Source: Macrostomum lignano (taxonomy: Eukaryota). Taken from it: a stretch of 64,000 bases of DNA. Where the stretch lies: NCBI GenBank assembly GCA_002269645.1, contig NIVC01000352.1, positions 496,001-560,000 on the forward strand. The letters run 5' to 3'. The position numbers and the translations under genes are program-made. The notes under the pieces are model-generated. The model ran no database searches, had not been told where the DNA came from, and worked only from the letters and a program-made list of their open reading frames with translations. The first letter of the stretch is position 1. Each line of letters begins with the position of its first letter. Positions 1 through 59,300 of the stretch are shown piece by piece.

Positions 1-28254
<28,254 letters not shown>

Positions 28255-30421: not shown

Positions 30422-30492
30422 TTTGATAAACGCGCAGTCTGTTTGCATTAATTAAGCTGATCCGCCCTTCCAGTCAGCCACCAAGAGTGTCA

Positions 30493-33400
30493 ATGGAAGG
30501 CACTGGCAGCAGGCAGCAGCGACATCCAGATCAGCAGATCTATCGACCGCCGCCAATCAGTCGCAGCGACCGTGTTGGTAGCGGCAGCGGCGGCGGCGGC
30601 GGCGGCGGCGGTGGAGGCAGAGGAGGCGGCGGAGGAGGCAGTGGCAGGACGGAAGGCGCCGCCGCAAGTGCGGCAGATGCGGACGCTGTCGGCAAGGCTG
30701 CCGCGCTGTCAGCTGGTGGCGGGCGCACTTTTTATAACAAAAGCCGTCGCAAGGGCGGGCACAGCGCTGGCCAGTCTCAGCAGCAGCAGCAGCAACAGCA
30801 ACAACCGCCGCAACAGAAAAAGCAGCAGAAACAGCCCAATCCTCAAGCGCAGCAACAACCGAAGCAGCAGCAGCAGCAACAGGCAGTAAAAAAGCAGCCA
30901 TCGCCGCAAGATCCGCAGCTTCAGGCTGGCAATACTGCTGGCGAAGGCGGGGGCGGAGGCAGGGGCGGAAGCGGGGGCGGAGGTCGGAGAAGAAACCGGC
31001 GCAGCGGAAATAAGCTGCAAAAGCAGCAACAGCAACAGCCGCATCAGAAGAAGCAGTTTCAAACAGTTGGCGATGCCGATGCGGTTGTCGAATTTTTTGC
31101 CGACGACGAGATGTGGGAACCGCAGGAGGCTGACCAGCATCCGCCACTGCCTCATCAGCCGCCGCCTCCGCCTCCGCCTCCGCTGCCGCAGCCGCAGCCC
31201 AGTTACAATTACCGGCCCAGGGGCGGAGGCGCCGGCGGCGGTTCAGGCAGGCGGGAGAAGCGCTGCTCCGAGTCCTCGCGCGGCGGCGGCGGTCGCGGCG
31301 GCTTCTCGGACAGCTTCTCCGAGGCCGAGTTCGACCGGGGTGAGGTGCTCCGACCGGACGCTCGTCTGTACGACCCGGCCAAGGATCCCGTGGTTGCCCT
31401 GCCGTCGCCTCGCATGCCTCAGCAGCAGCAGCAGCCGCCGCAGTCTGTGTTGAATCCAGGCCAGGACCCGATGGGCCCGCAGCATCTTCATCAACAGCCG
31501 GATGCGGAATCCGGTGCCGGTGGTCAGCTTCAACAGCAGCAGCAGCAGCCGCACACTGGCGGTCTCATTCGTTTGCCCGAGACTCTGCGGCGCGACGCCA
31601 TGCACCGAGGGCCCAAAGATGGGCGCCAGGTGAGTTAATGCTTGTACTATAGGAAAATAGTACATCTATTCAAGTTAAATTTGCTTAAAAACATTTTGAT
31701 CATTATCACCTTCTTTAAAGAAAATATAATTTGTCCATTCTTAAGTACCTAGTGGGATCAGGATTCGAACCCCCGACCTTTCGGTCGTGAGTCCGATTCT
31801 CTAACCACTAGGCTACAACCCCACAATGCCCTCACAAATCCTAAGCACAATGTAGTTGAGGATGTTGAGCACGAAAGTTAATCAGTTATAACATCGAATT
31901 ACAGAAAGTGCGTTTGTTGGATGTGCGGAAAATGTTCCACCATAGGGAACATATCTCCAACTCTCATCGATCTAGTAATAACTGATTTTTCATTGCCTCA
32001 ACAGTGATTTAGCTGTGTAAAATATCAACCATAAGCGTTAAATGAGACTTAATTAACCTGACCTGAAGAATTATAAAATTTTCAACTATGCCTTAATCAA
32101 CAAGCAACAATTAAAATGTTTTACTGACACAAACAACATGCAATGCTTGCCATAAATACAAGATCCGAAAATGTTCGGAGCTCTCAGATGCTCGGACACG
32201 AATCCGGTTTTTACTACCGCATGTTACTACGTCTGAAGAGTTTAAGAGTGGTGATCAGTCACTCAAAAACTCCCACTTCTAGACACGGGGGAACAAGTGC
32301 CTAGGTATTTATCAGTTCAAATAACTTACTTCAGCGGATCCTCTTGGGGTCGGCAGCCGGTGGAGTTCTGTGGCGCGTCGGGATAGCAAGCTTGCTGAGC
32401 GGTTACGGCGACCGGTTCCGGTGAACCACTGTTTTTCTTTGGTGTCCTTAACTTTATCTGTGGGTCGACCAAACGAGAGCGAATCAGAACTTCTTAACGG
32501 TCCTCGAGCTCGGAATTCACAATAGAACGTGCGCCCTAATGAACAATTGAATTCTCTAATTTTCTGTGATAGGTCCTCCTGAAGGGCGGCTTCTTCGTTA
32601 CGTCCGAAACGTAACGGATAACTCAATTAAATCAATAAATCCTCTAGGAATATCCTAGGAAACAAGGAGGCCTTTCTCAAATGTATCGACAATGAACTGC
32701 TCTCGTATACTCAATCAATCACTTTATTAGCGCTATTAACAATTAACTAAATCGGGTAAACGCTTACCAATTGGACAGGGATGGTCCCTCAGAGATTGGT
32801 CTTCTTATTTCTTCGGTGTCTTCTTAGAGACCGCTCCGAGTCTGAATTTTGACTTGAATTTTCACTTATATTTATAGCAAAATTTTGGAAAAAAACCGGT
32901 TTGGGATTGGGTATTTACTTAGGTCAAAAATGTTTGATTAAGCGGTCATGCATGTTTGAGCATTACCATATATGGAGTTAAACAAATACAGCTGTTGAAA
33001 TCCGGTTCCTTGATCAAACAATGTAGGGTTCTAAATCATTCTGTTTGCGCGTGATTCCTAAAATAGATATGACTCATTTTGAAAGAAATTGACTTCCTTA
33101 GAATATTACTTTAAGTAGAGCATTACGGTATGGTCTAATAACTCTCTACAATATCTCCCCTTTTCACAAAAATTCGTCCCGAATTTTAAAGTTAAAGCGG
33201 TGAAGTGGGGTTTTATCTTCTAATAAACATGAAAATGTATTTAAGGATTAGAAATTTTGAACCAGTAGTAGTATAGTAGATGGATAGGTAGATAGGTAGG
33301 TCACATTGTTATTGTGTTGCTTGGCAGGATGCATTGTTATTGTTAATAGGAAAGCGTATTATTCAGTATATCGTTTACTTTGGTTGTCAATCTCGCGAGT

Positions 33401-36400
33401 GGCCACAGTAAGTGCTGTATCGGCGTAAATTGTGTTGATTCGGTGGCGTTGAGGAATTCCAGGTAGATCTCTTCAGTTGTACTCGTAGTATTTATTGGAT
33501 GCGCCGCATATTGACGTACCAAGTCAAAAAGATATTCCAAATGGTCTCTCTTGTTGAATGGTATTGGCCATGTTCGTATAGCTGTTGCTAGTTCCTTGGC
33601 CGTCATACTGTCCATGGTCTCCTTTGTAAGTTGGATCTTTGGTAATGTTGTTGTTCCGGCGTAAATTTCCTTAGATATTGGCGCTGCACAAGTTATGCAA
33701 TGCTTATAGTCGCGGCACCGAATTTTTAGAGCACAATCTCGGCAGACCCAGTGTCCGTTGGCGCACATCCTTTGTTGCGGTGTTGTATTGCATACCTGGC
33801 ACAGGGTAGGTGGTGCGCGGCATAGCGGGCATTTGTCTATTCTATCCGTTGTGCAGCAGTTATAGCAGAACTTATGCCCATGCTGACAGTAGACATACTG
33901 TTCAGTGTCTTCATAACAAACAATGCACTCGTCGCTATCCATGTCTGAAAATGGTCAATGTGATAAGTAATATCTGTGCAAGAATGGTTGCAATATCTGT
34001 GGGTGCATGGTATTTTAATCAATTTCTGAAGCGGAACTATTATAGTCATATGATTCTTGGGGTGGTAATATATAAGACAAGTCCTCATTACGCAGAATGA
34101 GTGCAGGTAGAGCTGTACAGAGGATGGGGCATGGGTGAAAATTCATATCGTTAACAATTTTAAACAGCTTATGTTCAATTTCTTGTGGAGATAATTGCCG
34201 GAGTCTAGAACCGTAGGAAGAGGAATAGCGAACGAGGTATTTACGTGTTTTATGAGCAGCACGTGGTATGGGCCATGATCTGAGGCGGATAATTATAGCA
34301 TGTGATGGAAAAAGAGCATAAGTGAATGGGTGAAGCTGTAGGTTGTAGTCCGCTTGAATGCATGCAAGTTTGTTGTTAACTTTAGGTAAAGGGGTGGCAT
34401 CGCATATAGGACACTGACAAATGGAGCGATAAGCAAGCTTCTTAATACATTGTGTGCACATAAAATGTTGATTTAAGCAATATTGTTCAGTGCGCCAGGA
34501 GTTGCATAACATGCATTGACGGAGATTACCTCGACACATAGGGCAATTTTTTAAAGGTTTTTTGTAATATGCAAGGCTTAAGCAAGAACCACACACCTGG
34601 TGTCTATTGACACATATACAAGGTAGTTTACATGAAAATTCTCCGAGACAGATAGGACAATCCATTGTCGTGTTTGTCGTAGTTGTGTGAGCGTTTGTAG
34701 GAAAACAAGGATTTAGTCGCCTCTTACGACAAGCTTGAGGAAGCTGTAGTGCTATTCTTTATCCCGGTCACTACACGGGGACATGAAGCGAATAATTTAA
34801 CGAGGTCTTAGGTTGTACGTATGACCGACAGGTGGTGCGTTTGTTGTTTGTGTTTCGGCGTGTGCAGTGGCAATGTGTTTATTTGTTGTTTTTGTGTGGT
34901 CTGGATTTTGTAGGTCTGGGAGGAATGTAGTGTCGTTAGTGATACGTTTTAGACGTTGAATGTGAACATAGAACTGAGGTTGATGTGGATCCTGGATATT
35001 AGCGAGGCGTGCTGATACTAGAGAAGGCTTAGGTAGGTCTCGCTTATGTCGTTCTATGACATCTTTTCTCTGATAGGTTCCATTTACTACCTTCAGGAAA
35101 ACATTCTTATCCATATCCTTAAGCGCGATTGGTATTTCTTGGTCGGAGAGGATTAGTTGCTCGTCCTTGTTTTTACATTTCAAGTGTGTGTAGCTTGGTT
35201 GCTTTGGAAATGTAAGAGCCAAATCTCCTGAGTCGGCAAGGAAGGTGTTAGATAGCAGTTTCCCTTGAACAGTGTGATATTTTTGCAGCTTGCAGTCAAT
35301 TTCAGTTTTTACTTCCCATGCAGTGAAATATTTGCGGGTTCGGCTGGGCTCCTCATATCGGGAATCCGATCTATATTCAATTTGGTATCGATAGTCATGG
35401 AAATAAATCGGTGCTAGGGGTAAATTTTGAGCTTCTTCTTTGTTGTAGTTAGGGGTAGAACAATATCCAGAGCTGTAGTGACACTGGTCGAGTGGTAGCT
35501 GTAAGGATTCCATGTTGTCAAATGGATTGTGGTAGAATAAAACATTTCGGATGAGGTAGCTATTGTAGACTGAGTATGTAGGCCATCGTGATTGATGATA
35601 ATGGACATATCTTCCATCGGCTACATTTTTTGTGCGAAATAGCTGTGCTCCGCTGGCGGACGTCTCATGAAGTTTTAATTGACCATCTTCGGAAAACAGA
35701 GTTTGATTCCACCGAAGGCATTCTTCTTGTGATACCATCATCGAAGTTTGCCAATACCTGATTCGGTTCCATTGTACCAGCCAAACCTTTTCAATTTCAT
35801 CCTTGTCTCGGAAGCACACAATTCCCATTTGTCGATGCTTCTTTGTATTTGCTTTGTATATTTCAATAGTTAGTGGTAGTGGCTTGGTTTGGTTTGTCTT
35901 AAAGTAACTGCATTTGATTTCCGTAGGAATCTTGTAAATGACTGGCTGGATGTCTCCATCAGTGGGACAGATCATTGGAGATGGAGACGGCAGTACCGTG
36001 GGAACAATTGCCATCATCAAGATCGTGAGGAAGCATTGCAGTAGCGGATGTTTTTTCTTTCGTCTTGTTGGTACTGGTGGAGTGTCTTCAATCTCGTCAT
36101 GACTATCTTCAGGATACGGCGGAGGAGTAAGGCGAGTCGAAAAGTGCCATTTGTTAGAACATGGTAATGGTGTGGGTGGCTGCGATTGCAACATCGGACG
36201 CATAAAGTTGGTTGATTTTGATATATTGGTAAGATGTGTAGTTGTATTCTCATCAGTTGGAGTGTTAACCGGTTCCATTATTGTTATCGGTTCATCATAT
36301 TCGCTTTCATAGTCTAGGTTCATTGAAACATATGTGTCATCCTCCGTCTGTACGAACTTTTCATCTGTCGAATGGTTAGATTGTGTGTTCGTGGCCTTGT

Positions 36401-39400
36401 CATGTTTCCATTTTTCGTGGACTGGACTAGGGGAGACAATATTTTCATAGTCTGGTTCCTGTGTTGGAGGTGTTTCTGACAGGTCTATATCGTCGACTAG
36501 GACCTGCAACATGTCAACGCTTTCTTCAAAGATGTTTTGAGAAGTTGCTGGATCTCTGTCTTCTTCAAGTGTTGTCATTTCTTTACGATCCTGGAAATTG
36601 TCATCTCGGTGAGTTTCCGAAAGATTGTCGATCGTCGGAACTTTAAATAGATTGCTTTGTTGCTTAGAAATAGTTTGTTGTTGTCTTTTGTTTTCTCGGA
36701 AGACTGGACTTGCTTTAGAAGAGGTAGGAATGGGTGGATCTTCTTCAAACAGAGAATCCATCATGCAGCTACTTTCGCTGCTTGTGCTATCTTTTCGTTT
36801 TTCAAACTCCTCAAGGACATTGATTGTGAAATCCGGCATAAGATCCTCTATCTTAAACTCTGGTTCGATGACTTGAGTGTATTCCGGTTCAATAGCTTGA
36901 GCATATTGTCTGCGGACCTGAGTAGGCTGTCTTGGAGGAGGAGGATTTCTTTGTTGTCGATAAGGTACCAAGGCATTTCCTTGTCTATTCTGTGGTGGGT
37001 TCCAATTGCGATTTTGAGGACGAGTCCAATTTTTTCTTCTGTTGTCATTATATTGTCTTGGATTGCCACGTGATCGGCAGTCTCTGGCGTAATGACCAAT
37101 TCTTCCACAGGTGTAACAAGTGGGTGGCGGAGCGTATCTCTGTCGCTGTGGCATGATTGCAGAAGTTTGGTACTGCTGCATGAGTTTGCTCAATTGTTCT
37201 CCCAATTGTGTCGTATCACTACTACGAGAAGTCAGGAGTGGGGCACTTGCTTCCCATTGCATGCCGCAACGAATTAATTGTTCCTCTGTCTCAATGGTTT
37301 CTCTTAACAACCTGTCTCGCAGCGAAGGTTGAGCATTATTAATGACATGGAGGATTAGGCTTTGTTCTTGGTCAGCAAGGCGTTGTCTTTCTCGTGCAGC
37401 TAGTTCTGCTGGTCCGATAGGCTGAGCTCCTGGGTTCGGTGGTGGTGGCTGGTGCAACGCTTTAATAATTTTGCGGACGTCATCGACGAAAGTAAGGAAG
37501 GATTCCGTCGGACTCATTTTTCGATTATGAAGTTTGTGTAGAAGCACAGATCGATTGGTTCCACATCTGGCGAATTGTGCTCTCAGTTGTGTAACTAAAG
37601 TATGATAGTCTTGCTGTGCGGCGGCATTTAGTTTGCCATAAATTTCTCGAGCAGTACCTTCTAACAGTGGAGGAAGAAGAAGTGCCTTTTCTGGATTTTG
37701 TAGTCCGTATTCGCGAGTTACAAGGTCGAAGTGTTCAATGAAGGTGTTAAAATCTTTATCCATGGTATACATTCCAACAGTTTCCTTGACATCGCGATGC
37801 ACTGTAGGGTTTCTTCGAGCCATATTTTCAAATGGGAACGGCAAGAGGACCAGATCTGGATCAATTTCCAAAGGATTTTCCAGATTGGACTTTCAAAGTG
37901 GCGAACAAGTGTTGTGTGTGTGTGCAAGCTCTTATTTACTTAAAGGAAGAAAGAAAAATGGACACGGGGGCAAAAAAAATTCTGTGTTGCCTTTACCAAA
38001 GAAAGAAATTGAGATAGGATATTCGCAAATTTAACAAAAGTATAAAAAGGTGCACGAAGAATCAAAGGGTCTCTATGCAAACAATGGCGGTTCGGTAAAA
38101 AGTTCAGAAAAATTTGCGCAAAGGACTTGTGTCAAAGTACTTTCAGCGATCTAGCCTGGTAGCGCTTGAGCCTGGGCGAGATCACCAGTTGAAGAGTTTA
38201 AGAGTGGTGATCAGTCACTCAAAAACTCCCACTTCTAGACACGGGGGAACAAGTGCCTAGGTATTTATCAGTTCAAATAACTTACTTCAGCGGATCCTCT
38301 TGGGGTCGGCAGCCGGTGGAGTTCTGTGGCGCGTCGGGATAGCAAGCTTGCTGAGCGGTTACGGCGACCGGTTCCGGTGAACCACTGTTTTTCTTTGGTG
38401 TCCTTAACTTTATCTGTGGGTCGACCAAACGAGAGCGAATCAGAACTTCTTAACGGTCCTCGAGCTCGGAATTCACAATAGAACGTGCGCCCTAATGAAC
38501 AATTGAATTCTCTAATTTTCTGTGATAGGTCCTCCTGAAGGGCGGCTTCTTCGTTACGTCCGAAACGTAACGGATAACTCAATTAAATCAATAAATCCTC
38601 TAGGAATATCCTAGGAAACAAGGAGGCCTTTCTCAAATGTATCGACAATGAACTGCTCTCGTATACTCAATCAATCACTTTATTAGCGCTATTAACAATT
38701 AACTAAATCGGGTAAACGCTTACCAATTGGACAGGGATGGTCCCTCAGAGATTGGTCTTCTTATTTCTTCGGTGTCTTCTTAGAGACCGCTCCGAGTCTG
38801 AATTTTGACTTGAATTTTCACTTATATTTATAGCAAAATTTTGGAAAAAAACCGGTTTGGGATTGGGTATTTACTTAGGTCAAAAATGTTTGATTAAGCG
38901 GTCATGCATGTTTGAGCATTACCATATATGGAGTTAAACAAATACAGCTGTTGAAATCCGGTTCCTTGATCAAACAATGTAGGGTTCTAAATCATTCTGT
39001 TTGCGCGTGATTCCTAAAATAGATATGACTCATTTTGAAAGAAATTGACTTCCTTAGAATATTACTTTAAGTAGAGCATTACGGTATGGTCTAATAACTC
39101 TCTACACGTCCTCGAGCATGTTACCACAACAATCGCTTGCTATAAAGTCTGAGTCTGCATACCATTGTGCCACAATGAAGGTTAACGAATAATATTAACA
39201 TTGTAAGATGGCCATGTGTGACTTCAAAGGCGTCCTCCATCACATACACTTGCACCAAGATCAACTACGCAATCCGAAGATCGGCATAGTAGGAAAAATC
39301 TTCGGAGTTGTAATTGAACAAAACTATGCAGATCTCGCCAGTATAGTCCGGATCAAAAACACCTCCACCGATAAAGATGCCGCGTAGAGCTAGACTAGTT

Positions 39401-41812
39401 CGAATGCTTCGGGATTCGTAGGCTGGTATGATGCCCTCTGTAGCCGAAGATAAATCATACCCAATTGATCCGACAGTTTGACAGGTTGGAATCATCGCCA
39501 AACCAAGCACAAGCTCGACCAAAGTTTTCGATCAAATGTCGTAGACTGCTCTGTCTCTGACTAATCGGTAGATGTTGCACTTGATCCATGTCACCAATTC
39601 TTGTAGCTGAAAGTGATTTAAAAAAGTAAAAGTTTCTCCTAGAACATGAACGTCAGCAACTACATCATCTACGTCTACAAACACAAGTTTTTTTGCATTT
39701 TGAGAAAGAATACCAATATAGCTATAAAACTTACACTCTCAAAAATTGAACACAAAAAGGTACTAAAATTACATACAATTTAAATGAATGTACACCAAAT
39801 GTATGAATGAAATCGACAAGAAAAATCATCCTACTAGCATTACACACCATAAAAAATAAGTAAATAGGTTGCTTTATACAAGAGAGAGAGAGCATTTTTG
39901 CATAGTATTGTTAATCATCCAAACGCCAATGTAAAAAGGCAACGAATCTGTTGGAGTTGTCCAGGAACGCTTATTATAAAAAAAGCTCATACAAAAGCTC
40001 ATCAAAAATACTTTCTGCTTTCGAGAACGAATGCACTGCATGCGCGAAAACACAAGTTGTCGCTGGTTTAGAACTCTAAAATAAAATCAAGTAAATAAAA
40101 CTGCTTGCACCCTTGTCTTGTTAATCGGATTGGACCGGATCGGAAACACCGGAGACTAGTTTGCACCCTTGTCTTGTTAATCGGATTGGACCGGATCGGA
40201 CACACCGGAGACTAGTTTGCACCCTTGTCTTGTTAATCGGATTGGACCGGATCGGACACACCGGAGACTAGTTTGCACCCTTGTCTTGTTAATCGGATTG
40301 GACCGGATCGGACACACCGGAGACTAGTTTGCACCCTTGTCTTGTTAATCAGATTGGACCGGATCGGACACACCGGAGACTAGTTTGCACCCTTGTCTTG
40401 TTAATCGGATTGGACCGGATCGGACACACCGGAGACTAGTTTGCACCCTTGTCTTGTTAATCGGATTGGACCGGATCGGACACACCGGAGACTAGTTTGC
40501 ACCCTTGTCTTGTTAATCGGATTGGACCGGATCGGACACCGGAGACTAGTTTGCACCCTTGTCTTGTTAATCGGATTGGACCGGATCGGACACACCGGAG
40601 ACTAGTTTGCACCCTTGTCTTGTTAATCGGATTGGACCGGATCGGACACACCGGAGACTAGTTTGCACCCTTGTCTTGTTAATCAGATTGGACCGGATCG
40701 GACACACCGGAGACTAGTTTGCACCCTTGTCTTGTTAATCGGATTGGACCGGATCGGACACACCGGAGACTAGTTTGCACCCTTGTCTTGTTAATCGGAT
40801 TGGACCGGATCGGACACACCGGAGACTATTTTGCACCCTTGTCTTGTTAATCGGATTGGACCGGATCGGACACACCGGAGACTAGTTTGCACCCTTGTCT
40901 TGTTAATCGGATTGGACCGGATCGGACACACCGGAGACTAGTTTGCACCCTTGTCTTGTTAATCGGATTGGACCGGATCGGACACACCGGAGACTAGTTT
41001 GCACCCTTGTCTTGTTAATCGGATTGGACCGGATCGGACACACCGGAGACTAGTTTGCACCCTTGTCTTGTTAATCGGATTGGACCGGATCGGAAACACC
41101 GGAGACTAGTTTGCACCCTTGTCTTGTTAATCGGATTGGACCGGATCGGACACACCGGAGACTAGTTTGCACCCTTGTCTTGTTAATCGGATTGGACCGG
41201 ATCGGACACACCGGAGACTAGTTTGCACCCTTGTCTTGTTAATCGGATTGGACCGGATCGGACACACCGGAGACTAGTTTGCACCCTTGTCTTGTTAATC
41301 GGATTGGACCGGATCGGACACACCGGAGACTAGTTTGCACCCTTGTCTTGTTAATCGGATTGGACCGGATCGGACACACCGGAGACTAGTTTGCACCCTT
41401 GTCTTGTTAATCGGATTGGACCGGATCGGATTCGATACTTGGATACTTGGACATTTCAATGCTTGGATGTTAAATTACGCAATTTTGTTTTAAAAGAGCT
41501 GCCAAAATATTTGTAAACTGGCTAATTTTATTAACTTGTGTAAAAATCGTGTTTGTATCGAATTGAAATATAATACTGCTTTAAAAGAAGTTAATTTGAA
41601 TGCGTAAAGTTATACGCAAATATCAGGTTTATATGTCTGAAGTGGTGTGTCTAATTAAGCCACTATTCATTTCGTAAAACTAAGTCTGCGTGCACATGGA
41701 ATTTCAGACTTTGCCATTTTTCTGGGCCTGTACTTGCTATGTATTTCACCATAAGGAAATCGGGTTGTGTCATATTTTCCTATACTAATTATGCTGACTA
41801 AAGTTCTTTTCG

Positions 41813-41861
<49 letters not shown>

Positions 41862-44800
41862 GTCTGTCTGTCTGTCATTGCTATCGGCCACCCCTTCCGC
41901 ACACGCCCAGGTCCCCATAGTGGTAGTGCGGCCACAGTCGCATCACGCGCAGCCGCAGCCGGCCATGCAGTCAGAGGAGTCCCAAGCCGCAGCCGAGCAC
42001 ATTGAGCAGGTTTGCCAGCTGGACTCCGAGCTGGATAGGCTGGTCCAGCAGTGGGCTCCCAGCATGGACCCGCAGGTGTGGTGGGGCCTGGTCCAACGCC
42101 CCCGGCTCGACCTGCTGCACAGGTGCGCCGACGCCCTGCGGGCAGGTGCCGGCTGGCAGGAATCGAACTCAGGCCCGCAGCCGGCCCTAGACCAGAGAAT
42201 GTGGCGCTCAGGGTTTCACGCAATTGTTGAACAGCTACGCCAGATGTCCGGGCCGGATCAGCCGGAGCGACTGGCCGAGCGTGGCCGGGAACTGGCGCTG
42301 GACATGATCGAGTCTGGCTGGCAATTTCTGCAACAACTTGCTGACCAGTTGGCCGCCGAGCACGAACTGCCGGTTGAGCTGCCGCTCCGCATCGGCTTCC
42401 TGCCGCCTGCGGTGAGGTGCACCCGCTGGCAGCGGCTCGGCCTGCTGCTCATCCAGCGGCTCTACCTCAACATTGGTGATTTGCTCCGCTACAGAGAGGT
42501 CTTCTCCGGTGGCGCCGACTATAGCGAAGCTAGAAGGTGAGCTGGGTGCTCCTGTGAATTATTCTACGAAATAGATGTATTTTAGTTTGAAAGTAAAATC
42601 GTTGAGTTCATTTTTCTAAGATTTCTTTTTCAGTTTTTTGAGTGTTAGTGTAAAAGATTCTTAGAATGAATTATCGTACGAGTGTTTCTAAGCAATGAAT
42701 TGTTATCATGAGAATGTTTCTAAGAAATATCGTCTGGAAATGTTTCTAAGAAATATCGTATGGAAATGTTTCTAAGAAATATCGTATGGAAATGTTTCTA
42801 AGAAATATGGTATGGAAATGTTTCTAAGAAATATCGTCTGGAAATGTTTCTAAGAAATATCGTCTGGAAATGTTTCTAAGAAATATCGAATGGAAATGTT
42901 TCTAAGAAATATGGCATGGAAATGTTTCTAAGAAATATCGAATGGAAATGTTTCTAAGAAATATCGAATGGAAATGTTTCTAAGAAATATGGTATGGAAA
43001 TGTTTCTACAAAATATTTATTATCGTAGGAATGTTTTTAAAAAGTATTAAAAAATCTTAGAAATGTTTCTAAGCCAATTTTGTGAGTGTCCCTTGGCAAC
43101 ACTCAGGTGAATGATTCAAGGTAATCCCATATACTAATCCCATATACTAAGAATTGATTCTAGAAATGATTATTTCTCTTCCCTCTTCAACCCTCTTCAA
43201 CTTACCCAGCTGGTACTTGAAGGCTGTGGCGCTGGAGCCCAAGAATGGTCGGACCTACCATCAGCTGGCTGTGCTGGCTAATGCAACAGTGAGTTTTCTT
43301 TAATTCATTGACTCTTTTTGAGTTCCAATTAGATGACTTTCCATGAGATCAATCAATCCGACTTTGAATCTTCTTTATGTTAAGAATTTTCATCCGCTAA
43401 TCAATAATCGCTTCGCTTGAAAGAGTAGCGGAACTGCCCTGTCCCTGAGAGGAATTAAGTTTTCATCTTAAGAATTTTCATGCCTGAACTATCACCTCAC
43501 CTGAAAAATCGCCCCACCTGAAGCACCGCCCTACCTGAAGAACTCCCTCCCCTACCTGAAGAATCGCCCACCTGAAGAACCACCCCTACCTGAAGAGCCG
43601 CCCCACCTGAAGAACCGCTCCACCTGAAGAACTGCCCCACCTAAAGAACCGCCCCACCTGAAGAACCGCCCCACCTGAAGAACCGCCCCAACTGAAGCAC
43701 CGCCTCATCTGAAGCACCGCCCTACCTAAAGAACTCCCTCCCCTACCCGAAGAACCGCCCCACCTGAAGAACCGCTCCACCTGAAGCACCACCCCACCTG
43801 AAGAACCGCCCCACCTGAAGAACCGCCCCACCTGAAGCACCGCCCCACCTGAAGAACCGCCCCACCTGAAGAACCGCCCCACCTGAAGAACCGCCCCACC
43901 TGAAGAACCGCCCCTACCTGAAGAACCGCCCCACCTGAAGAACCGCCCCACCTGAAGCACCGCCCCACCTGAAGAACCGCCCCACCTGAAGCACCGCCCC
44001 ACCTGAAGCACCGCCCCACCTGAAGCACCGCCCCACCTGAAGAACCGCCCCACCTGAAGCACCGCCCCACCTGAAGCACCGCCCCACCTGAAGAACCCCC
44101 GCCGCCGCCCCGGCAGAAGCGCCGGCTAGACGCGGTGTACTACTACATGCGGTCGCTGGCCGCCAGCCACCCGGTGGACCTGTCCCGCCAGTACCTGGCC
44201 CAGCTATTTGAAGAGGCCAGACGCCGCGCCGAGGCGGCCTGGCGGCAGAGAGAAGCGGAGCGCAGCAAGCGTCAGCGGGCGAAGAACGCCGGCTCTTCCG
44301 GGCCGTCGCTCAGCAGCGGCGGCCTCCGGGCGCTTCAACAGCCGAACCGGCGCTGCCGCGTCGAAGTCTGGGTGCCGGTGTCCGGCGCCGGCCGCCAGCT
44401 CAGCTCCGGCCTGCTCAACTCTGACGAAGAGGACGTCGAACAAGAGGAGGACCTGGACCAGCTGTCCTTCATTGAGATCAACACGGCATTCACGGCCAGC
44501 TACCTGCACTGCCACGGCAAGCTGTTCACCCGCATCGGCATGGAGAGCTTCCAGGAGGCCTGCTCGCAGACTCTGCTTGAGCTGGCAGCCTGGCTGCGCC
44601 ACGAGCCGCCGGCTGAGCGGCTACTTCAACTGGCGGCCGGCTGCGTGTTCTCCGCCAGCTGGGCCGCCCGCCAGGGACCGCCAGGAGCGGCCCAGTACAG
44701 ATCTGTGCAGTTGGAGAGCGCCGTTCGGCTGGCGCTGGACTTTGCCGCCGTGCTGGCTAGGCACTGCCGGCACCTGCTGGCTGTGAGTTTGCACCGGGTT

Positions 44801-47604
44801 CACGGCCTGTCACACAGCCTGTCACACAGATTACTCCAATCTATTACACAGCCTGTCACACAGATTACTGCAATCTATCACACAGCCTTCACACAGATTA
44901 CTGCAATCTATCACACAGCCTTCACACAGATTACTCCAATCTATCACACAGCCTGTCACACAGATTACTCCAATCTATCACACAGCCTGTCACACAGATT
45001 ACTCCAATCTATCACACAGCCTGTCACACAGATTACTCCAATCTATCACACAGCCTGTCACACAGATTACTGCAATCTATCACACAGCCTGTCACACGGA
45101 TTACTGCAATCTATCACACAGCCTGTCACACAGATTACTGCAATCTATTACACAGCCTGTCACACAGATTACTGCAATCTATCACACAGCCTGTCACACG
45201 CCCTGTCACACAGCCCGTCACACGGCATGCCTGGCGGACATTCTAATTAAGCCAATAATTCAGCAAATTAGAATCGAATCGGACTGGCATCGCAGCCCAA
45301 TCAGGATACTATGAGTAGGCATCTATGCGCGCATCTGTTGTTAAATACGTTACCCACCGCCGCCCTTCCCCCAACCGGCAGGAACACGTCAAGAACGGCG
45401 GCTGCCTTCCCCTGCCGGAGCCCACCCGGGCGCTCCTGTCCTCGCTGAAGCTGCTGCTAGACTGGATGGAGGTGTCCCCGGAGGCGTGGAACCCGCCGCC
45501 CTTGCAGCGTGACCCGCACCTGCAGCCTCAGCTGGACGTCTGGGAGGACCTGGCCAGCCTGTTCACCGACTGCGCTCGATTCTCCAACCGGCCGGAGGTT
45601 CGCCGCCAGCTGTTGGACTTTGAGGAGTCCAAGAAGCCGCCGATCTCGCCGCCGGGCAGCTGCCGGCTGCACGTGATCCTTCAGGAGGACGTCTTCGCCA
45701 ACGGCTTCACCCCCATGCTCAACCGGACCCCGATTTTCTACGTCGCCAAGCAGGCGCCGGCGGAGCTGTCGGCGGTGACGGACGCGCCCGAAGCCTGGTC
45801 GGTGCGCGAACGCCTGCTGGAGGACTCGATCAGGCTGGACGCCTGCGCCGTGTTCGCCGACTATCTGTGCGGCCTGGAGCCGCCCCTGCTCGGCTACAGC
45901 ATGGAGGCCGGCGGTGCCTACTTCAGCCAGCAGCTCGACAAGCTGGCCTCCGAGCGGATGGAAGATTGCCAACAGCCGCAGCCGCAACCGCCGTCGCTGG
46001 AGTTTGCGGAGGCCGGCATCCAGGATGAGCCGGATGAATCCGGTGCCGCTTCGGCCGACGACGAGCTGGCCGCGTCGGCGGCTGCTGACGGCATTCGGGA
46101 GCTGCGTCTGCGCAAGCAGGAACTGCGACGGGCCCTGGACGAGCAGCAGGAGCGCCAGCGGGCTTATAAGGTAATTGGACTGTCTGTCACGTGATTTGCC
46201 ATCTGGCTAGACACTGTCACGTGATCATTTGTGTTAGTAATCGTCACGTGGCCAGTCTCAGTAGCCGTCACGTGACAGTCTCAGTAGCCGTCACGTGACC
46301 AGTCTCAGTAGCCGTCACGTGACTAGTCTTAATAGCCGTCACGTGACCAGTCTCAGTAGCCGTCACGTGACTAGTCTTAATAGCCGTCACGTGACAAGTC
46401 TCAGTAGCCGTCACGTGACTCTCAGTAATCGTCACGTGACCAGTCTCAGTAGCCGTCACGTGACCAGTCTCAGTAGCCGTCACGTGACCAGTCTCAGTAA
46501 TCGTCACGTGACCAGTCTCAGTAGATGTCACGTGACTTGTCACCCCCTCAAATCAACCCCGCCTCCCCCCGCCTTCAGTCCGCCCTGGAGTCGTCCGGCC
46601 AGCGCTACATGGAGCTGGAGATTGTGCCGATCAACCTGCTGCCGGACACCAATTGCTACATTCACTACCTGGGCGAGATACGCAGCCTACTAGCCATGGG
46701 CAAGCACAATCTGATTCTGCCAATTGTAGTGCTCAACGAATTGGATCACCTGGCTAAGCACGGCGACTCGAGCGAGCACGCTGGCTACGTTGCCAGCCAG
46801 GCTCGAGCCGCGGTTGCCATGCTGGAGGAGGCATTCGAGTCCAAGGCAGGCGGAGCAGCCAGGCGCCGGGTCAAAGCGGTCACGGCCAAGGGCAGCACGT
46901 TGGACACCATCGCTTTCCGGTCCGAGGTGATCGGCCGGCCGGCTAAGAACGACGACCTCATTCTGTCCTGCTGCATGAACCACTGCCAGGACAAGGCTAG
47001 CGCCTTTATGCCTAAGGATAAGGGTGAGTGCGTCCCGTCTGCTGAAGGCTGACCGTCACGTGTCACGGACCTGGGGTTCCAGTCGGCTGGGAGATGAAGG
47101 GTTGGATGAGGCTGGGAGATGGAGGGTTGGATGAGGCTGAGAGATGAAGGTTTGAATGAGGCTGGGAGATGGAGGGTTGGATGAGGCTGGGAGATGGAGG
47201 GTTGGATGAGGCTGAGAGATGAAGGTTTGAATGAGGCTGGGAGATGGAGGGTTGGATGAGACTGAGATAAAAGAGTTGGATGAGGCTGGAAGATAAATGT
47301 TTGGATGAGGCTGGGAGATGAAGGGTTGGATGAAGCTGGGAGATGAAGACTTGGATGAGCCTAGGAGATACAGGCTTTGATGAGGCTGGGAGATAAAGGG
47401 CCTCCAGACGAATGCAGCAAGCTTATATAAATAGTATTAGCCCACCTACTCGTGCCCACAGACCAGCCCGTCAGGCTGCACAGGGACATTGTGCTGCTGA
47501 CCAGCGACAGGAACCTCCGGCTGAAGGCCATCGGGTCGAACATTCCCGCAAAGACAGTGCCGGCCTTCTTCAAGTGGTCCGGCCTGCCCATGTGCCGGAA
47601 TTGA
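30493..47604 (+). CDS. SMG6: SMG6/EST1A nonsense-mediated decay endonuclease, 1294 aa
   Basis: Exons 30493-31629, 41911-42536, 43210-43288, 44117-44782, 45382-46170, 46579-47023 and 47462-47604 join in frame (3885 nt). TPR/EST1 region: GDLLRYRE..YSEARSWYLKA..PKNGRTYHQLAVLA..KRRLDAVYYYMRSLAASHP. PIN domain: LPDTN, NELD, KNDDLILSCC, VLLTSDRNLRLKA. N-terminal EBM-like PDQQIYRP. Confidence 0.95.
31751..31822 (-). mobile_element. tRNA-like sequence, probably a SINE head or tRNA pseudogene
   Basis: The minus strand reads GGGGTTGTAGCCTAGTGGTTAGAGAATCGGACTCACGACCGAAAGGTCGGGGGTTCGAATCCTGATCCCAC. A and B boxes are intact and the anticodon loop is CTCACGA, but the acceptor and T stems pair poorly. Confidence 0.6.
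32234..33150 (-). repeat. 3' LTR (917 bp)
   Basis: Direct repeat of 38190-39106. On the minus strand: TATAAATA at 32869-32876 and AATAAA at 32723-32728. Confidence 0.95.
33151..33165 (-). other. Polypurine tract GAAAAGGGGAGATAT
   Basis: Purine-rich run directly abutting the 3' LTR on the minus strand. Confidence 0.88.
33343..33942 (-). CDS. Cargo ORF B: tandem double C3HC4 (SIAH-like) RING protein, 199 aa
   Basis: CIVC-x9-C-QHG-H-KF-C-YN-C-x8-CPLC followed by CQVC-x8-C-ANG-H-WV-C-RD-C-x11-CITC. Intact ATG-to-stop ORF. Confidence 0.85.
   Translation of the reverse strand: MDSDECIVCYEDTEQYVYCQHGHKFCYNCCTTDRIDKCPLCRAPPTLCQVCNTTPQQRMCANGHWVCRDCALKIRCRDYKHCITCAAPISKEIYAGTTTLPKIQLTKETMDSMTAKELATAIRTWPIPFNKRDHLEYLFDLVRQYAAHPINTTSTTEEIYLEFLNATESTQFTPIQHLLWPLARLTTKVNDILNNTLSY
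34015..34665 (-). CDS. Cargo ORF A: tandem double C3HC4 (SIAH-like) RING protein, 216 aa
   Basis: CPIC-x11-C-VNR-H-QV-C-GS-C-x12-CPMC followed by CMLC-x8-C-LNQ-H-FM-C-TQ-C-x11-CPIC. Intact ORF. Confidence 0.85.
   Translation of the reverse strand: MDCPICLGEFSCKLPCICVNRHQVCGSCLSLAYYKKPLKNCPMCRGNLRQCMLCNSWRTEQYCLNQHFMCTQCIKKLAYRSICQCPICDATPLPKVNNKLACIQADYNLQLHPFTYALFPSHAIIIRLRSWPIPRAAHKTRKYLVRYSSSYGSRLRQLSPQEIEHKLFKIVNDMNFHPCPILCTALPALILRNEDLSYILPPQESYDYNSSASEID
34797..37823 (-). CDS. Gag (capsid-like + CCHC knuckle) fused to an Env-like ectodomain fragment, ~1008 aa from the first ATG
   Basis: N-terminal retrotransposon-gag-like helices (FNTFIEHFDLV..EKALLLPPLLEGTAREIY). CYTCGRIGHYARDC at 37077-37118. 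Acidic/disordered linker. Hydrophobic signal-like LLQCFLTILMMAIVPTVLP (~35988-36044). Cys-containing glycoprotein-like region with N-x-T sequons. Furin-like RHKR at 35040-35051. C-terminal VHIQRLK and HTYNLRPR. Confidence 0.82.
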   Translation of the reverse strand: MARRNPTVHRDVKETVGMYTMDKDFNTFIEHFDLVTREYGLQNPEKALLLPPLLEGTAREIYGKLNAAAQQDYHTLVTQLRAQFARCGTNRSVLLHKLHNRKMSPTESFLTFVDDVRKIIKALHQPPPPNPGAQPIGPAELAARERQRLADQEQSLILHVINNAQPSLRDRLLRETIETEEQLIRCGMQWEASAPLLTSRSSDTTQLGEQLSKLMQQYQTSAIMPQRQRYAPPPTCYTCGRIGHYARDCRSRGNPRQYNDNRRKNWTRPQNRNWNPPQNRQGNALVPYRQQRNPPPPRQPTQVRRQYAQAIEPEYTQVIEPEFKIEDLMPDFTINVLEEFEKRKDSTSSESSCMMDSLFEEDPPIPTSSKASPVFRENKRQQQTISKQQSNLFKVPTIDNLSETHRDDNFQDRKEMTTLEEDRDPATSQNIFEESVDMLQVLVDDIDLSETPPTQEPDYENIVSPSPVHEKWKHDKATNTQSNHSTDEKFVQTEDDTYVSMNLDYESEYDEPITIMEPVNTPTDENTTTHLTNISKSTNFMRPMLQSQPPTPLPCSNKWHFSTRLTPPPYPEDSHDEIEDTPPVPTRRKKKHPLLQCFLTILMMAIVPTVLPSPSPMICPTDGDIQPVIYKIPTEIKCSYFKTNQTKPLPLTIEIYKANTKKHRQMGIVCFRDKDEIEKVWLVQWNRIRYWQTSMMVSQEECLRWNQTLFSEDGQLKLHETSASGAQLFRTKNVADGRYVHYHQSRWPTYSVYNSYLIRNVLFYHNPFDNMESLQLPLDQCHYSSGYCSTPNYNKEEAQNLPLAPIYFHDYRYQIEYRSDSRYEEPSRTRKYFTAWEVKTEIDCKLQKYHTVQGKLLSNTFLADSGDLALTFPKQPSYTHLKCKNKDEQLILSDQEIPIALKDMDKNVFLKVVNGTYQRKDVIERHKRDLPKPSLVSARLANIQDPHQPQFYVHIQRLKRITNDTTFLPDLQNPDHTKTTNKHIATAHAETQTTNAPPVGHTYNLRPR
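38170..38187 (-). other. Primer-binding site TGGTGATCTCGCCCAGGC
   Basis: Begins 2 nt after the 5' LTR and is complementary to a tRNA 3' end ...CCTGGGCGAGATCA-CCA. Confidence 0.85.
38190..39106 (-). repeat. 5' LTR (917 bp)
   Basis: Direct repeat of 32234-33150; no mismatches noticed by eye. TATA at 38825-38832 on the minus strand. Confidence 0.95.
39247..39522 (-). pseudogene. Decayed trimeric dUTPase
   Basis: AMIPT..GSIGYDLSSA (motif 1), GGGVFDPDYTGEICIVLFN (motif 3), RIA*LIL (motif 4, with Gln replaced by TAG at 39265-39267). The motif 2 (RSG) region is deleted. Confidence 0.8.
40105..41430 (+). repeat. 56-bp satellite (TTGCACCCTTGTCTTGTTAATCGGATTGGACCGGATCGGACACACCGGAGACTAGT), ~23 copies
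   Basis: Highly homogeneous period of 56, in the same SMG6 intron as the LTR element. Confidence 0.96.
41814..41875 (+). repeat. (TGTC)n microsatellite
   Basis: Tetramer run just upstream of SMG6 acceptor 41910. Confidence 0.9.
42712..43010 (+). repeat. 26-bp minisatellite (GAAATGTTTCTAAGAAATATCGTATG), ~11 copies
   Basis: Tandem repetition in an SMG6 intron. Confidence 0.9.
43490..44098 (+). repeat. ~17-bp C-rich minisatellite (CACCTGAAGAACCGCCC)
   Basis: Tandem repetition in an SMG6 intron. Confidence 0.92.
44805..45215 (+). repeat. 34-bp minisatellite (TCACACAGCCTGTCACACAGATTACTGCAATCTA), ~12 copies
   Basis: Period 34. Confidence 0.92.
46186..46536 (+). repeat. ~24-bp minisatellite, each unit containing GTCACGTG(AC)
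   Basis: About 15 CACGTG E-box cores, most as the palindrome GTCACGTGAC. Confidence 0.92.
47092..47396 (+). repeat. 25-bp minisatellite (GGATGAGGCTGGGAGATGGAGGGTT), ~12 copies
   Basis: Tandem repetition in the last SMG6 intron. Confidence 0.9.
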
Positions 47605-47865
47605 CCTTCAGCTGTCCCTCAGCCGAGCGCAGGCTAGTCGCGTAATCTTTGAAAGTACAAAGTGTACTTAGTATGCTAATATCTGATGTCACACCTGCCT
47701 ATATAATTACTTTCTCTCTCTCTCATTGTAAATTTATCTATGTATACGAGTTTTAATTTTCTTTTTGCCTTAATTTTTCAAATTTCCCTCCAACGCGATA
47801 TTATTTATACTGCCCTAATGCATTGCAGTGCATTTTGTGTATAATATACTGAAAATATAATATAA

Positions 47866-47871: not shown

Positions 47872-48048
47872 CTGCTTGCGATGTTTATGAAGCATTCGTT
47901 TCGCGATTCCTGCACTGTCTTCAATTCCTACGAGTAATTTAATAAATGCTCTGGTCCTTTTGCTCTTGCTGCCTTCCTTACTTCATTGGCCGCCTTCTAG
48001 AAGCAGCACCATTGACCTTTGTTTTGCTTTTAATGTAGACCGATATTT

Positions 48049-50056
48049 ACGCTACATATCGGCAATCCACCAATCCTGGTACATAAGAATTAGATAACTA
48101 CGCTACATATCGGCAATCCACCAATCCTGGTACATAAGAATTAGATAACTACGCTACATATCGGCAATCCACTAATCCTGGTACATAAGAATTAGATAAC
48201 TACGCTACATATCGGCAATCCACCAATCCTGGTACATAAGAATTAGATAACTACGCTACATATCGGCAATCCACTAATCCTGGTACATAAGAATTAGATA
48301 ACTACGCTACATATCGGCAATCCACCAATCCTGGTACATACGAATTAGATAGCTACGCTACATATCGGCAATCCACCAATCCTGGTACATAAGAATTAGA
48401 TAACTACGCTACATATCGGCAATCCACCAATCCTGGTACATACGAATTAGATAGCTACGCTACATATCGGCAATCCACCAATCCTGGTACATAAGAATTA
48501 GATAACTACGCTACATATCGGCAATCCACTAATCCTGGTACATAAGAATTAGATAACTACGCTACATATCGGCAATCCACCAATCCTGGTACATAAGAAT
48601 TAGATAACTACGCTACATATCGGCAATCCACCAATCCTGGTACATACGAATTAGATAGCTACGCTACATATCGGCAATCCACCAATCCTGGTACATAAGA
48701 ATTAGATAACTACGCTACATATCGGCAATCCACCAATCCTGGTACATAAGAATTAGATAACTACGCTACATATCGGCAATCCACCAATCCTGGTACATAC
48801 GAATTAGATAGCTACGCTACATATCGGCAATCCACCAATCCTGGTACATAAGAATTAGATAACTACGCTACATATCGGCAATCCACCAATCCTGGTACAT
48901 AAGAATTAGATAACTACGCTACATATCGGCAATCCACCAATCCTGGTACATACGAATTAGATAGCTACGCTACATATCGGCAATCCACCAATCCTGGTAC
49001 ATAAGAATTAGATAACTACGCTACATATCGGCAATCCACTAATCCTGGTACATAAGAATTAGATAACTACGCTACATATCGGCAATCCACCAATCCTGGT
49101 ACATAAGAATTAGATAACTACGCTACATATCGGCAATCCACCAATCCTGGTACATACGAATTAGATAGCTACGCTACATATCGGCAATCCACCAATCCTG
49201 GTACATAAGAATTAGATAACTACGCTACATATCGGCAATCCACCAATCCTGGTACATAAGAATTAGATAACTACGCTACATATCGGCAATCCACCAATCC
49301 TGGTACATACGAATTAGATAGCTACGCTACATATCGGCAATCCACCAATCCTGGTACATAAGAATTAGATAACTACGCTACATATCGGCAATCCACCAAT
49401 CCTGGTACATAAGAATTAGATAACTACGCTACATATCGGCAATCCACCAATCCTGGTACATAAGAATTAGATAACTACGCTACATATCGGCAATCCACCA
49501 ATCCTGGTACATACGAATTAGATAGCTACGCTACATATCGGCAATCCACCAATCCTGGTACATAAGAATTAGATAACTACGCTACATATCGGCAATCCAC
49601 TAATCCTGGTACATAAGAATTAGATAACTACGCTACATATCGGCAATCCACCAATCCTGGTACATAAGAATTAGATAACTACGCTACATATCGGCAATCC
49701 ACTAATCCTGGTACATAAGAATTAGATAACTACGCTACATATCGGCAATCCACCAATCCTGGTACATAAGAATTAGATAACTACGCTACATATCGGCAAT
49801 CCACCAATCCTGGTACATACGAATTAGATAGCTACGCTACATATCGGCAATCCACCAATCCTGGTACATAAGAATTAGATAACTACGCTACATATCGGCA
49901 ATCCACCAATCCTGGTACATACGAATTAGATAGCTACGCTACATATCGGCAATCTACCAATCCTGGTACATAAGAATTAGATAACTACGCTACATATCGG
50001 CAATCCACCAATCCTGGTACATAAGAATTAGATAACTACGCTACATATCGGCAATG
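48049..50056 (+). repeat. 51-bp intergenic satellite (ACGCTACATATCGGCAATCCACCAATCCTGGTACATAAGAATTAGATAACT), ~39 copies
   Basis: Period 51, with three recurring variant units. Confidence 0.96.
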
Positions 50057-50804
50057 GACTGAATCTGCTAATGTAGAAAGATATTTTCACTCGTACGAGC
50101 TACCTCTACGCATCGAAAGATGGTCCTTGCTCTGGGTAGTGTAAAATTAGATGACTAGATGTACGCTACATATCGGCAATATCTGTTTATTTTATGTCGT
50201 CGTACATTTACGTGCAAGCAGATAGGTATCTAATTCTTCTACTAAATAGAAGACGGCATGTATCCAGCGCTTCTCTCTTCTATCCCCTTTCCCTGTCCCT
50301 CTGCTCTGCTTTGCTTCTGCCGGATAGCTGCCGCATGAAGCTTGTATCGAGTCTGGAATTCGTTTTGAGCACTCTGTTCGATAACTGCACAACAGCTCTT
50401 CTTTCAACAGCAATTACCCTGACTCATCTTGACGCCACTTGAGCTGAAATCGACCCTACTAGAGCTCGAATTGGCGCTACTAGAACTCGTAGTTGCGCTA
50501 CTAGAACTCGAATTAGCGCTAGAATTAGAGCTAGAACTCAAATCAAATTTAAAAACTCAGAGAATTTGACACCAAAGTATTAAATTGTATTCTTGATGAT
50601 CAGAAAGAATGTCAGGGATAGGGTCAGATTGTCAGACAGATTTTCAGCTAAACTGTGCGGCTTGGCAACAATCGAAGTATTTAATGAACAACATAGAAAA
50701 TTTCAAAAGCAAAGTTTTAAACAAAAATTTTCTGACCATTTTTTCGCCAGCTTTAATCTCAGCCAAATTGTTGTCTTTTTTGTCCTCCTTGTTGTTAACT
50801 CGGC

Positions 50805-53842
<3,038 letters not shown>

Positions 53843-56376: not shown

Positions 56377-59300
56377 ATGATAAAACGCCAAATCAATTTA
56401 GTTAGACTGGCGGCGGCACTAATTGAGCTATTATTAATATCGACGGTCTCTTTGATGTCTGCCACCGACGCCGCGACTTGCGTTGAGTGCCCGGCTGGCC
56501 GAGTGTGGAATCCTAACGAACCTGGCTGCACCAAATGTCCCCAGGGTCGCTGCACAGATGTCGGCCAGTGCGCCCGGTGTCCGCCTGGCACTAGCCAGGC
56601 CAAGCCTGGACAGAGGGACTGTCAGCCCTGTCCGGTGGGCATGCACCAGCCTGCGTCCGGCCAGGCCGGCTGCACAGCCTGTCCAGCAGGCGAGGAGGCG
56701 CCCAGCAGAGGCGCCATTAACTGTACCGAATGCCGGCCGGGTTTCAACAAATCCGAGTCCGGCGCACAGCTGTGCGGCGCCTGTCCGGCCGGGAGCTACT
56801 CGGACGAGTTGGCCAGTTTAGAGTGCCAAGTAAAATTGAGGACTGGTGGAAGAAGAATCGTATAGGGGAGAAATGGGAACAGTAGGGGGAGTAGTTGTAG
56901 TAGTAGGGGGAGAATGGGGAACCGTAGGGGAGAATGGGGAACCGCAGGGGAGAATGGGGAACCGTAGGGGGAGAATGGGGAACCGTAGGGGAGAATGGGG
57001 AACCGTAGGGGGAGAATGGGGAACCGTAGGGGGAGAATGGGGAACCGTAGGGGGAGAATGGGGAACCGTAGGGGGAGAATGGGGAACCGTAGGGGAGAAT
57101 GGGAACCGTAGGGGAGAATGGGGAGCCGTAGGGGGAGAATGGGGAACCGTAGGGGAGAATGGGGAACCGTAGGGGGAGAATGGGGAACCGCAGGGGAGAA
57201 TGGGGAACCGTAGGGGGAGAATGGGGAACCGTAGGGGAGAATGGGAACCGTAGGGGGAGAATGGGGAACCGTAGGGGGAGAATGGGGAACCGTAGGGGGA
57301 GAATGGGGAACCGCAGGGGAGAATGGGGAACCGTAGGGGAGAATGGGGAACCGTAGGGGAGAATGGGAACCGTAGGGGAGAATGGGGAACCGTAGGGGGA
57401 GAATGGGGAACCGTAGGGGAGAATGGGAACCGTAGGGGGAGAATGGGGAACCGTAGGGGAGAATGGGAACCGTAGGGGAGAATGGGGAACCGTAGGGGGA
57501 GAATGGGGAACCGTAGGGGAGAATGGGAACCGTAGGGGGAGAATGGGGAACCGTAGGGGGAGAATGGGAACCGTAGGGGGAGAATGGGTAACCGTAGGGG
57601 GAGAATGGGGAACCGTAGGGGAGAATGTCGAACCGTAGGGGGAGAATGGGGAACCGTAGGGGAGAATGGGGAACCGTAGGGGAGAATGGGAACCGTAGGG
57701 GGAGAATGGGGAACCGTAGGGGAGAATGGGGAACCGTAGGGGGAGAATGGGGAACCGTAGGGGAGAATGGGGAACCGTAGGGGGAGAATGGGGAACCGCA
57801 GGGGAGAATGGGGAACCGTAGGGGGAGAATGGGGAACCGTAGGGGAGAATGGGAACCGTAGGGGGAGAATGGGGAACCGTAGGGGGAGAATGGGGAACCG
57901 TAGGGGGAGAATGGGGAACCGCAGGGGAGAATGGGGAACCGTAGGTGAGAATGGGGAACCGTAGGGGAGAATGGGAACCGTAGGGGAGAATGGGGAACCG
58001 TAGGGGGAGAATGGGGAACCGTAGGGGAGAATGGGAACCGTAGGGGGAGAATGGGGAACCGTAGGGGAGAATGGGAACCGTAGGGGAGAATGGGGAACCG
58101 TAGGGGGAGAATGGGGAACCGTAGGGGAGAATGGGAACCGTAGGGGGAGAATGGGGAACCGTAGGGGGAGAATGGGGAACCGCAGGGGAGAATGGGGAAC
58201 CGTAGAGGAGAATGGGGAACCGTAGGGGAGAATGGGAACCGTAGGGGAGAATGGGGAACCGTAGGGGAGAATGGGGAACCGTAGGGGAGAATGGGAACCG
58301 TAGGGGGAGAATGGGGAACCGTAGGGGAGAATGGGAACCGTAGGGGAGAATGGGGAACCGTAGGGGGAGAATGGGTAACCGTAGGGGGAGAATGGGGAAC
58401 CGTAGGGGGAGAATGGGGAACCGTAGGGGAGAATGGGGAACCGTAGGGGGAGAATGGGGAACCGTAGGGGAGAATGGGGAACCGTAGGGGGAGAATGGGG
58501 AACCGTAGGGGAGAATGGGGAACCGTAGGGGGAGAATGGGGAACCGCAGGGGAGAATGGGGAACCGTAGGGGAGAATGGGGAACCGTAGGGGAGAATGGG
58601 AACCGTAGGGGAGAATGGGGAACCGTAGGGGGAGAATGGGAACCGTAGGGGGAGAATGGGGAACCGTAGGGGAGAATGGGGAACCGTAGGGGGAGAATGG
58701 GGAACCGTAGGGGAGAATGTCGAACCGTAGGGGGAGAATGGGGAACCGTAGGGGAGAATGGGGAACCGTAGGGGAGAATGGGAACCGTAGGGGGAGAATG
58801 GGGAACCGTAGGGGAGAATGGGGAACCGTAGGGGGAGAATGGGGAACCGTAGGGGAGAATGGGGAACCGTAGGCGAGAATGGGAACCGTAGGGGGAGAAT
58901 GGGAACCGTAGGGGAGAGTGTCGAACCGTAGGGGAGAATGGGGAACAAACAGTGGGGGAGAATGGGGAACCGTGGGGGAGAATGGGGAACCGTAGGGGAG
59001 AATGGGGAACCGTAGGGGAGAATGGGGAACCGTAGGGGAGAATGGGAACCGTAGGGGGAGAATGGGAACCGTAGGGGGAGAATGGGGAACCGTTGGGGAG
59101 AATGGGAAACCGTAGGCGAGAATGGGAACCGTAGGGGGAGAATGGGAACCGTAGGGGAGAGTGTCGAACCGTAGGGGAGAATGGGGAACAAACAGTGGGG
59201 GAGAAGGGGAACCGTTGGGAAGAAACTGATACATAAGATACATAGAATGAAGGGAAAACTATAGGTGCTTTAATGGGGCTGACAATATCGGGCAGGGGTA

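Follow-up and report, generated by a model that had tools for sequence, protein, structure and literature searches.

How can a long terminal repeat (LTR) retroelement that encodes no polymerase have been inserted very recently, and what copied it? The question is raised by a 6.9-kb element on the minus strand (positions 32234-39106) of a 64,000-nucleotide stretch of the genome of the flatworm Macrostomum lignano (contig NIVC01000352.1, positions 496,001 to 560,000; hereafter the window). The element is an internally deleted, Pol-less derivative of a Gag-Env-Pol Ty3/gypsy family residing in the same genome, and it is young, multi-copy and non-autonomous. Our overall reading, to which we give a probability of roughly 75%, is that a copy of this family (family A) lost Pol by internal deletion and that full-length family members likely co-packaged and copied it, allowing re-insertion at five sites.

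Origin of the element

The two LTRs of the element (917 bp each, with TG...CA termini) align with 0 mismatches, and CGTC abuts the element at either end as a 4-bp target site duplication (TSD). These features and the polypurine tract (PPT) are as an earlier note on this DNA, made from the sequence alone, had described them. The primer binding site (PBS) it had reported is also present, though slightly longer than the 18 nt given there, as 20 nt pair with the 3' end of host tRNA-Val genes (seven such genes, in 5 of the 12 genomic loci retrieved by the PBS pattern). Beside these retained signals, the 5,039-bp interior is Pol-less as claimed, motif and Pfam scans of the element having found neither a motif nor a match for protease (PR), reverse transcriptase (RT), RNase H (RH) or integrase (IN) core. 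The frame of about 1000 amino acids (aa) announced by the same note is open, with 1,008 aa counted from the ATG, and so are its two cargo open reading frames (ORFs), R1 and R2. The long ORF holds a CCHC knuckle, one hydrophobic segment, a furin-type site and an integrase-type tail; hydropathy found no C-terminal membrane anchor in it, the sole hydrophobic segment being the signal.

When the interior was used as a query in a DNA search of the genome, five whole matches were obtained, along with longer copies in which the match is split around a 4.4-kb insert; ten regions were examined for open frames and layout. C717 (11,288 bp) and C583 (11,502 bp) carry one open frame of 2,503 and 2,502 codons respectively (~2,480 aa from the first Met), in which Pfam and hydropathy place, in this order, Gag, a spacer, a signal-like segment, Env, a transmembrane segment (TM), PR, RT, RNase H and IN. 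C2596 and C262 are full-length with frame breaks, and C2129 is without its 5' part. The PR-RT-RH-IN order, LTRs, tRNA PBS, PPT and short TSD are those of Ty3/gypsy (Metaviridae) elements, to which the parent belongs by these sequence features. As in GAG-ENV-POL elements, its Env lies between Gag and Pol, with a gB-like (class III) fold between the two hydrophobic segments, signal and TM. The fold of the parent Env, modelled with AlphaFold from an alignment of 55 sequences (pLDDT 77), matches those of nyamivirus G (E 3e-24) and HSV-1 gB (Foldseek E 9e-21; Z 12.7 and rmsd 7.8 over 417 aligned residues).

The window element corresponds to C717 with 4,416 bp taken out, the two sides meeting in frame at a 5-nt microhomology (35008-35012). 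The C-terminal half of Env with its anchor, PR, RT, RNase H and most of IN were lost in the deletion. Compared with full-length relatives, the Env remnant is short by about 283 of about 611 residues and is fused to the last ~70 integrase residues. The break falls at residue 327-328 of the Env model, in the first turn of a 47-residue central helix and about ten residues past the furin site, so that the central helix and the membrane anchor are lost together with most of the crown. By what is established for gB, a fragment cut in this way could not trimerise normally nor fuse membranes. The description of Env as intact in the earlier note does not survive this comparison, and the window copy lacks both the intact anchored Env ectodomain and the intact Pol by which a gB-type errantivirus is recognised.

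We infer that the deletion arose by RT template switching. Splicing was considered as the source of the junction and rejected, as the skipped ends read GC..CG and the joint sits in genomic DNA; no env-skipping splice joint occurs among the 15 of 16 joints listed, which come from contigs only, so that absence is not shown. Two further deletion classes, both at short homologies, were found: a 3.2-kb Gag-only form, which keeps Gag through the knuckle and occupies three independent sites (C3022, C70, C1130; L018-L020) with near-identical LTRs, and a 4.7-kb form, found once, in which Gag is cut. Both multi-copy derivatives (6.9 kb at five sites, 3.2 kb at three) have kept Gag through the CCHC knuckle. 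Non-coding or decayed elements with a family-A LTR end and PBS also occur (C613, C2459, C3344, C3452, C462, C1424; L146-L151).

A sister family, family B, is more abundant (at least 55 integrase matches, 74-77% identity). Families A and B are 67-71% identical in nucleotides over aligned segments and 82% identical in amino acids over RT-RH, and they have the tRNA-Val PBS type and the terminal TGTAGAG...TCA in common; BLAST found no alignable LTR between the window element and family B. A family-B protein is 99.5% identical to a UniRef entry named Macrostomum lignano retrovirus-related polyprotein. The Gag-Env-Pol layout recurs in four further distant families (C1672/C247, C1189, C1695/C3269, C1674; some broken) and in database polyproteins. 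In distant families of this layout (C1672, C247, C1884, C1695, C3269; L132-L143), a long Thr-rich mucin-like Env insert lies between two furin-type sites. Many family-B and family-C fragments and RING ORFs are clustered within tens of kb in C2121, C87, C1130 and C272, possibly in the manner of piRNA clusters. Run X15, whose label names a second organism, contains 59% of the words of the parent element.

Copies, insertion sites and coding capacity

The exact junction is found at six genomic places (reversed control, 0), which amount to five independent sites, C301 and C2828 being identical over 570/570 flank bases. The TSDs at the five sites are GACG, CTCG, CCGA, CTCG and TCGA, with 0-2 LTR mismatches per copy and differing flanks, and at the window locus two homologous copies are empty, with a single CGTC each. 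Since six exact-junction copies occupy five independent sites and two homologous loci are empty, the lineage has been mobilised in trans after the deletion arose. The very recent, non-autonomous insertion with enzymes supplied in trans that the earlier note had proposed is thus borne out by the identical LTRs and the five sites, and the genome search it had suggested recovered both copies of the same internal structure and Pol-encoding relatives sharing LTR and PBS. Neither of the adverse outcomes it had named, a single copy or an assembly chimera, occurred.

It is hardly credible that a chimeric assembly, or segmental or chromosome duplication, produced the copies. Duplicated regions do exist (C301/C2828, C262/C2129), but the five flanks are distinct and have matching TSDs, and the joint is present in contigs of three of four public runs from different studies (X9, X16 and X19, not X11; in one of them the shorter side spans 248 letters), of which X9 is possibly the assembly's own source, the RNA label of X11, X16 and X19 being a guess.

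Comparison of the open-frame parents C717 and C583 gives dN/dS values of 0.06 (Gag), 0.13 and 0.07 (the Env halves kept and lost in the derivative, respectively), 0.01-0.05 (Pol) and 0.22 (R1), which for Env and Pol (0.01-0.13) indicate purifying selection in the parent. Across the five derivative copies nine codons vary, six of them non-synonymously; this small sample is consistent with neutral drift (p 0.42) and fits poorly with parental constraint (p 0.03). All five full derivative copies have the three ORFs open, but because the copies are so young this is no evidence of function.

The earlier note had read the open frames as a split-genome partnership, in which a helper contributes Pol and the element contributes particle, entry or anti-host functions. 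Besides the frames open in all five copies, it could appeal to C2129, which carries a roughly complementary half (the C-terminal half of Env plus Pol). Complementation by C2129 was rejected, however, as this copy has no U5 and no PBS and shares a flank with C262, and so reflects a post-insertion deletion. The Env of the derivative is without central helix, crown and anchor, the copies are too young for their frames to be informative, and most of their codon variants are non-synonymous. Since intact relatives themselves encode Gag, the whole Env, Pol and the RING cargo, that is, all that the derivative carries, a partnership is not needed, and we consider it very unlikely.

With 24% identity, R1 and R2 are paralogues, and families A, B and C carry them on the 3' side of Pol. 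R1 is truncated in many family-B copies and C583 has a different R2; by these comparisons the pair is a swappable feature of the clade, older than the deletion and inherited from the parent. From the RING domain one might guess at E3-ligase activity. A length-limited search for R2 homologues gave 0/35 candidates, and Atlas matches of R2 (at most 0.86) are to giant-virus RING/SAP proteins, a lead only.

Helpers, recombination and target sites

In the parent polyprotein, hydropathy and the shared layout suggest that Gag would be cytosolic and that the internal signal would direct Env to the lumen of the endoplasmic reticulum (ER); at the Env anchor the chain would cross back into the cytosol, with Pol hanging from the cytosolic tail of Env. 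In the derivative, a tethered Gag would still be made and, as in mouse IAP 1Δ1, could act in cis to draw the RNA that encodes it into helper particles. Without an anchor, the Env half and its integrase tail would be a luminal or secreted dead end, incapable of membrane fusion, and the cargo ORFs would be passengers 3' of the breakpoint. By this analogy the element is likely a defective parasite with Gag translated in cis, a freeloader on its full-length relatives and not their partner.

The full-length members of family A are candidate helpers by their LTRs, those of C717 and C2596 having 99.0-99.7% identity with the LTR of the window element. An Env patch of the derivative lineage is closer to C262 (11 differences in 499, versus about 17 to C717), and C301 has a divergent LTR patch; both patches suggest co-packaging and recombination with family-A variants.

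Several points weigh against copying by family A as just outlined. For the divergent LTR patch of C301 no donor was found, the best partial match being 95% over 80 bp. The whole frame is open in only two of the five full-length or near-full family-A copies examined, so that the actual helper may be absent from the assembly. The topology is predicted by hydropathy only, co-packaging and the cis-action of Gag draw on the analogy with IAP 1Δ1 and on a pattern among only three derivative classes, and joining in frame is expected one time in three by chance alone. Finally, CG lies inside the TSD at 5/5 derivative sites versus 5/35 sites of relatives (2/14 other family-A, 3/21 family-B; background 0.136), which is not expected were one integrase behind all insertions. 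The contrast (Fisher p 4e-4, or about 4e-3 allowing for ten dinucleotide classes) was spotted post hoc with n=5, and some control sites are known from a single flank. The count omits L075, whose ends are unclear, C538 and C255, which have at most one usable flank, and C391, a family-C site; it takes duplicated sites once.

The integrase that inserted the same parasite might instead come from another family or be an unassembled, CG-preferring variant. The CG contrast favours this, as do the PBS and termini common to family B and the position of C583, an open-frame copy, likewise at a CG target. Yet family B was rejected as a CG-preferring helper, its 3/21 sites with CG being set against the background of 0.136, and no variant at the DNG motif was found among family-A integrases. 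With only five sites and a pattern noticed after the fact, we regard another helper as unlikely. At two of the 21 family-B sites the TSD is 5 bp long instead of 4 bp (C2112, C260; L155, L156, L170).

A defective-interfering or host-tolerated decoy, in which the secreted Env half (with its predicted fusion-loop domain) or the tethered Gag would dampen spread of the parent, is decidedly unlikely. The signal, domains I-II and the furin site are retained, the assembly holds six junction copies versus five full-length family-A copies (and at least 55 integrase copies of family B), and the junction turns up in contigs from two presumed RNA runs; against this, a signal of selection was not seen and the RNA status of those runs is a guess. 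We find it just as doubtful that a defective-interfering lineage makes a hybrid product (tethered Gag, secreted half-fusogen, integrase tail) that hijacks helper particles, shifts targets to CG and restrains the enveloped parent in flatworm stem cells.

Locus context and known relatives

Table 1. Features of the Pol-less element and their positions in the window.
Feature	Position	Strand	Basis or remark
5' LTR, 917 bp	38190..39106	-	0 mismatches to 3' LTR
PBS, 20-nt match to tRNA-Val 3' end	38168..38187	-	comparison with host tRNA-Val genes
1,008-aa ORF: Gag, acidic spacer, signal segment, Env N-terminal half, integrase tail	34797..37823	-	
Gag CCHC zinc knuckle	37077..37118	-	PF00098, E 7e-7
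Hydrophobic internal signal-like segment preceding Env	35991..36047	-	hydropathy; putative signal role
N-terminal half of gB-like (class III) Env	35013..35990	-	parent Env fold resembles herpes gB and nyamivirus G
Furin-type RHKR site within Env half	35040-35051	-	
Deletion junction, 5-nt microhomology, 4,416 bp gone	35008..35012	-	comparison with C717
Final ~70 integrase codons, in-frame fusion	34800..35007	-	
Cargo ORF R1, 216 aa, Cys-rich, RING-like	34015..34665	-	24% identical to R2, E 8e-13; no Pfam RING match of its own
Cargo ORF R2, 199 aa, tandem RING fingers	33343..33942	-	PF13920, E 8e-8, two stretches
PPT	33151..33165	-	
3' LTR, 917 bp	32234..33150	-	
TSD CGTC	32230..32233	+	second copy 39107-39110; one CGTC at two empty homologous sites

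The element (Table 1) lies antisense in an SMG6/EST1A-like gene (30430-47640, plus strand), apparently in its first large intron; downstream exons match EST1, EST1_DNA_bind and PIN_4, and two homologous gene copies are without the insertion. A broken dUTPase relic (39199-39531, minus strand; PF00692, E 2e-12) adjoins the insertion site, and its DNA is 66-80% similar at about 30 other genomic places, which suggests another repeat family. Long minisatellite arrays occur at 17283-20400 (22 bp), 40100-41430 (24), 47940-50150 (51), 52885-53400 (8) and 56835-59300 (20/21).

NERVs, from nematodes, differ from the window element in host phylum and in being autonomous. Sacco et al. are said to have described in them, in 2022, a continuous gag-env-pro-pol ORF with a nyamivirus-like Env, and NERVs are not known to carry RING cargo. 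Their Env likewise stands ahead of Pol (PMC13524379). GAG-ENV-POL errantiviruses of the gB type are known in Platyhelminthes, Nematoda and Bryozoa, one M. lignano element, Mlig_errantivirus_2, being listed (PMC13524379), and the parent family is like them in gene order, gB-like Env and 12-nt PBS. Family B fits the listing of Mlig_errantivirus_2 (864-bp LTR, ~10.6 kb), whereas family A (917-bp LTR, 11.3 kb, no LTR likeness to family B) is set apart from it by the listed sizes. That survey left out elements with large truncations, and in the portions of its text drawn on here the terms 'non-autonomous', 'RING' and 'single ORF' do not occur. Family A and its derivative were not found in the literature searched, which has most subscription journals outside it, and none of four retroelement terms matched in PMC4604429. 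The element is real, multi-copy and non-autonomous, and it derives from an uncatalogued family that is sister to the published errantivirus type.

The mouse element IAP 1Δ1 has an in-frame internal deletion and a Gag fusion ORF, and although non-autonomous it out-transposes its parent, the fusion protein being cis-acting (PMC6466679). The window element is alike in its in-frame deletion, the resulting Gag fusion ORF and its non-autonomy, but IAP is an Env-less betaretrovirus-like endogenous retrovirus, whereas the fusion described here runs through the signal segment and half of Env, and its cis effect is proposed by analogy. Rotifer TelKA2n is likewise a non-autonomous invertebrate LTR family without most of pol; it lacks the C-terminus of Gag and has kept a separate F-type env ORF, whereas the window element has kept Gag and has a broken Env (PMC5408684).

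The element amounts to a naturally arisen deletion mutant of a virus of unusual design, whose Gag-Env-Pol polyprotein, read in one frame, would have to pass through the ER membrane twice. An RNA with only Gag, signal and half of Env is still copied in trans, and as this happens in a tractable laboratory flatworm, it becomes testable whether Gag acts in cis, which topology the chain takes and what the RING cargo does. If the CG bias holds in more insertions, it would point to a hidden helper or to an unknown effect of the passenger on integration.

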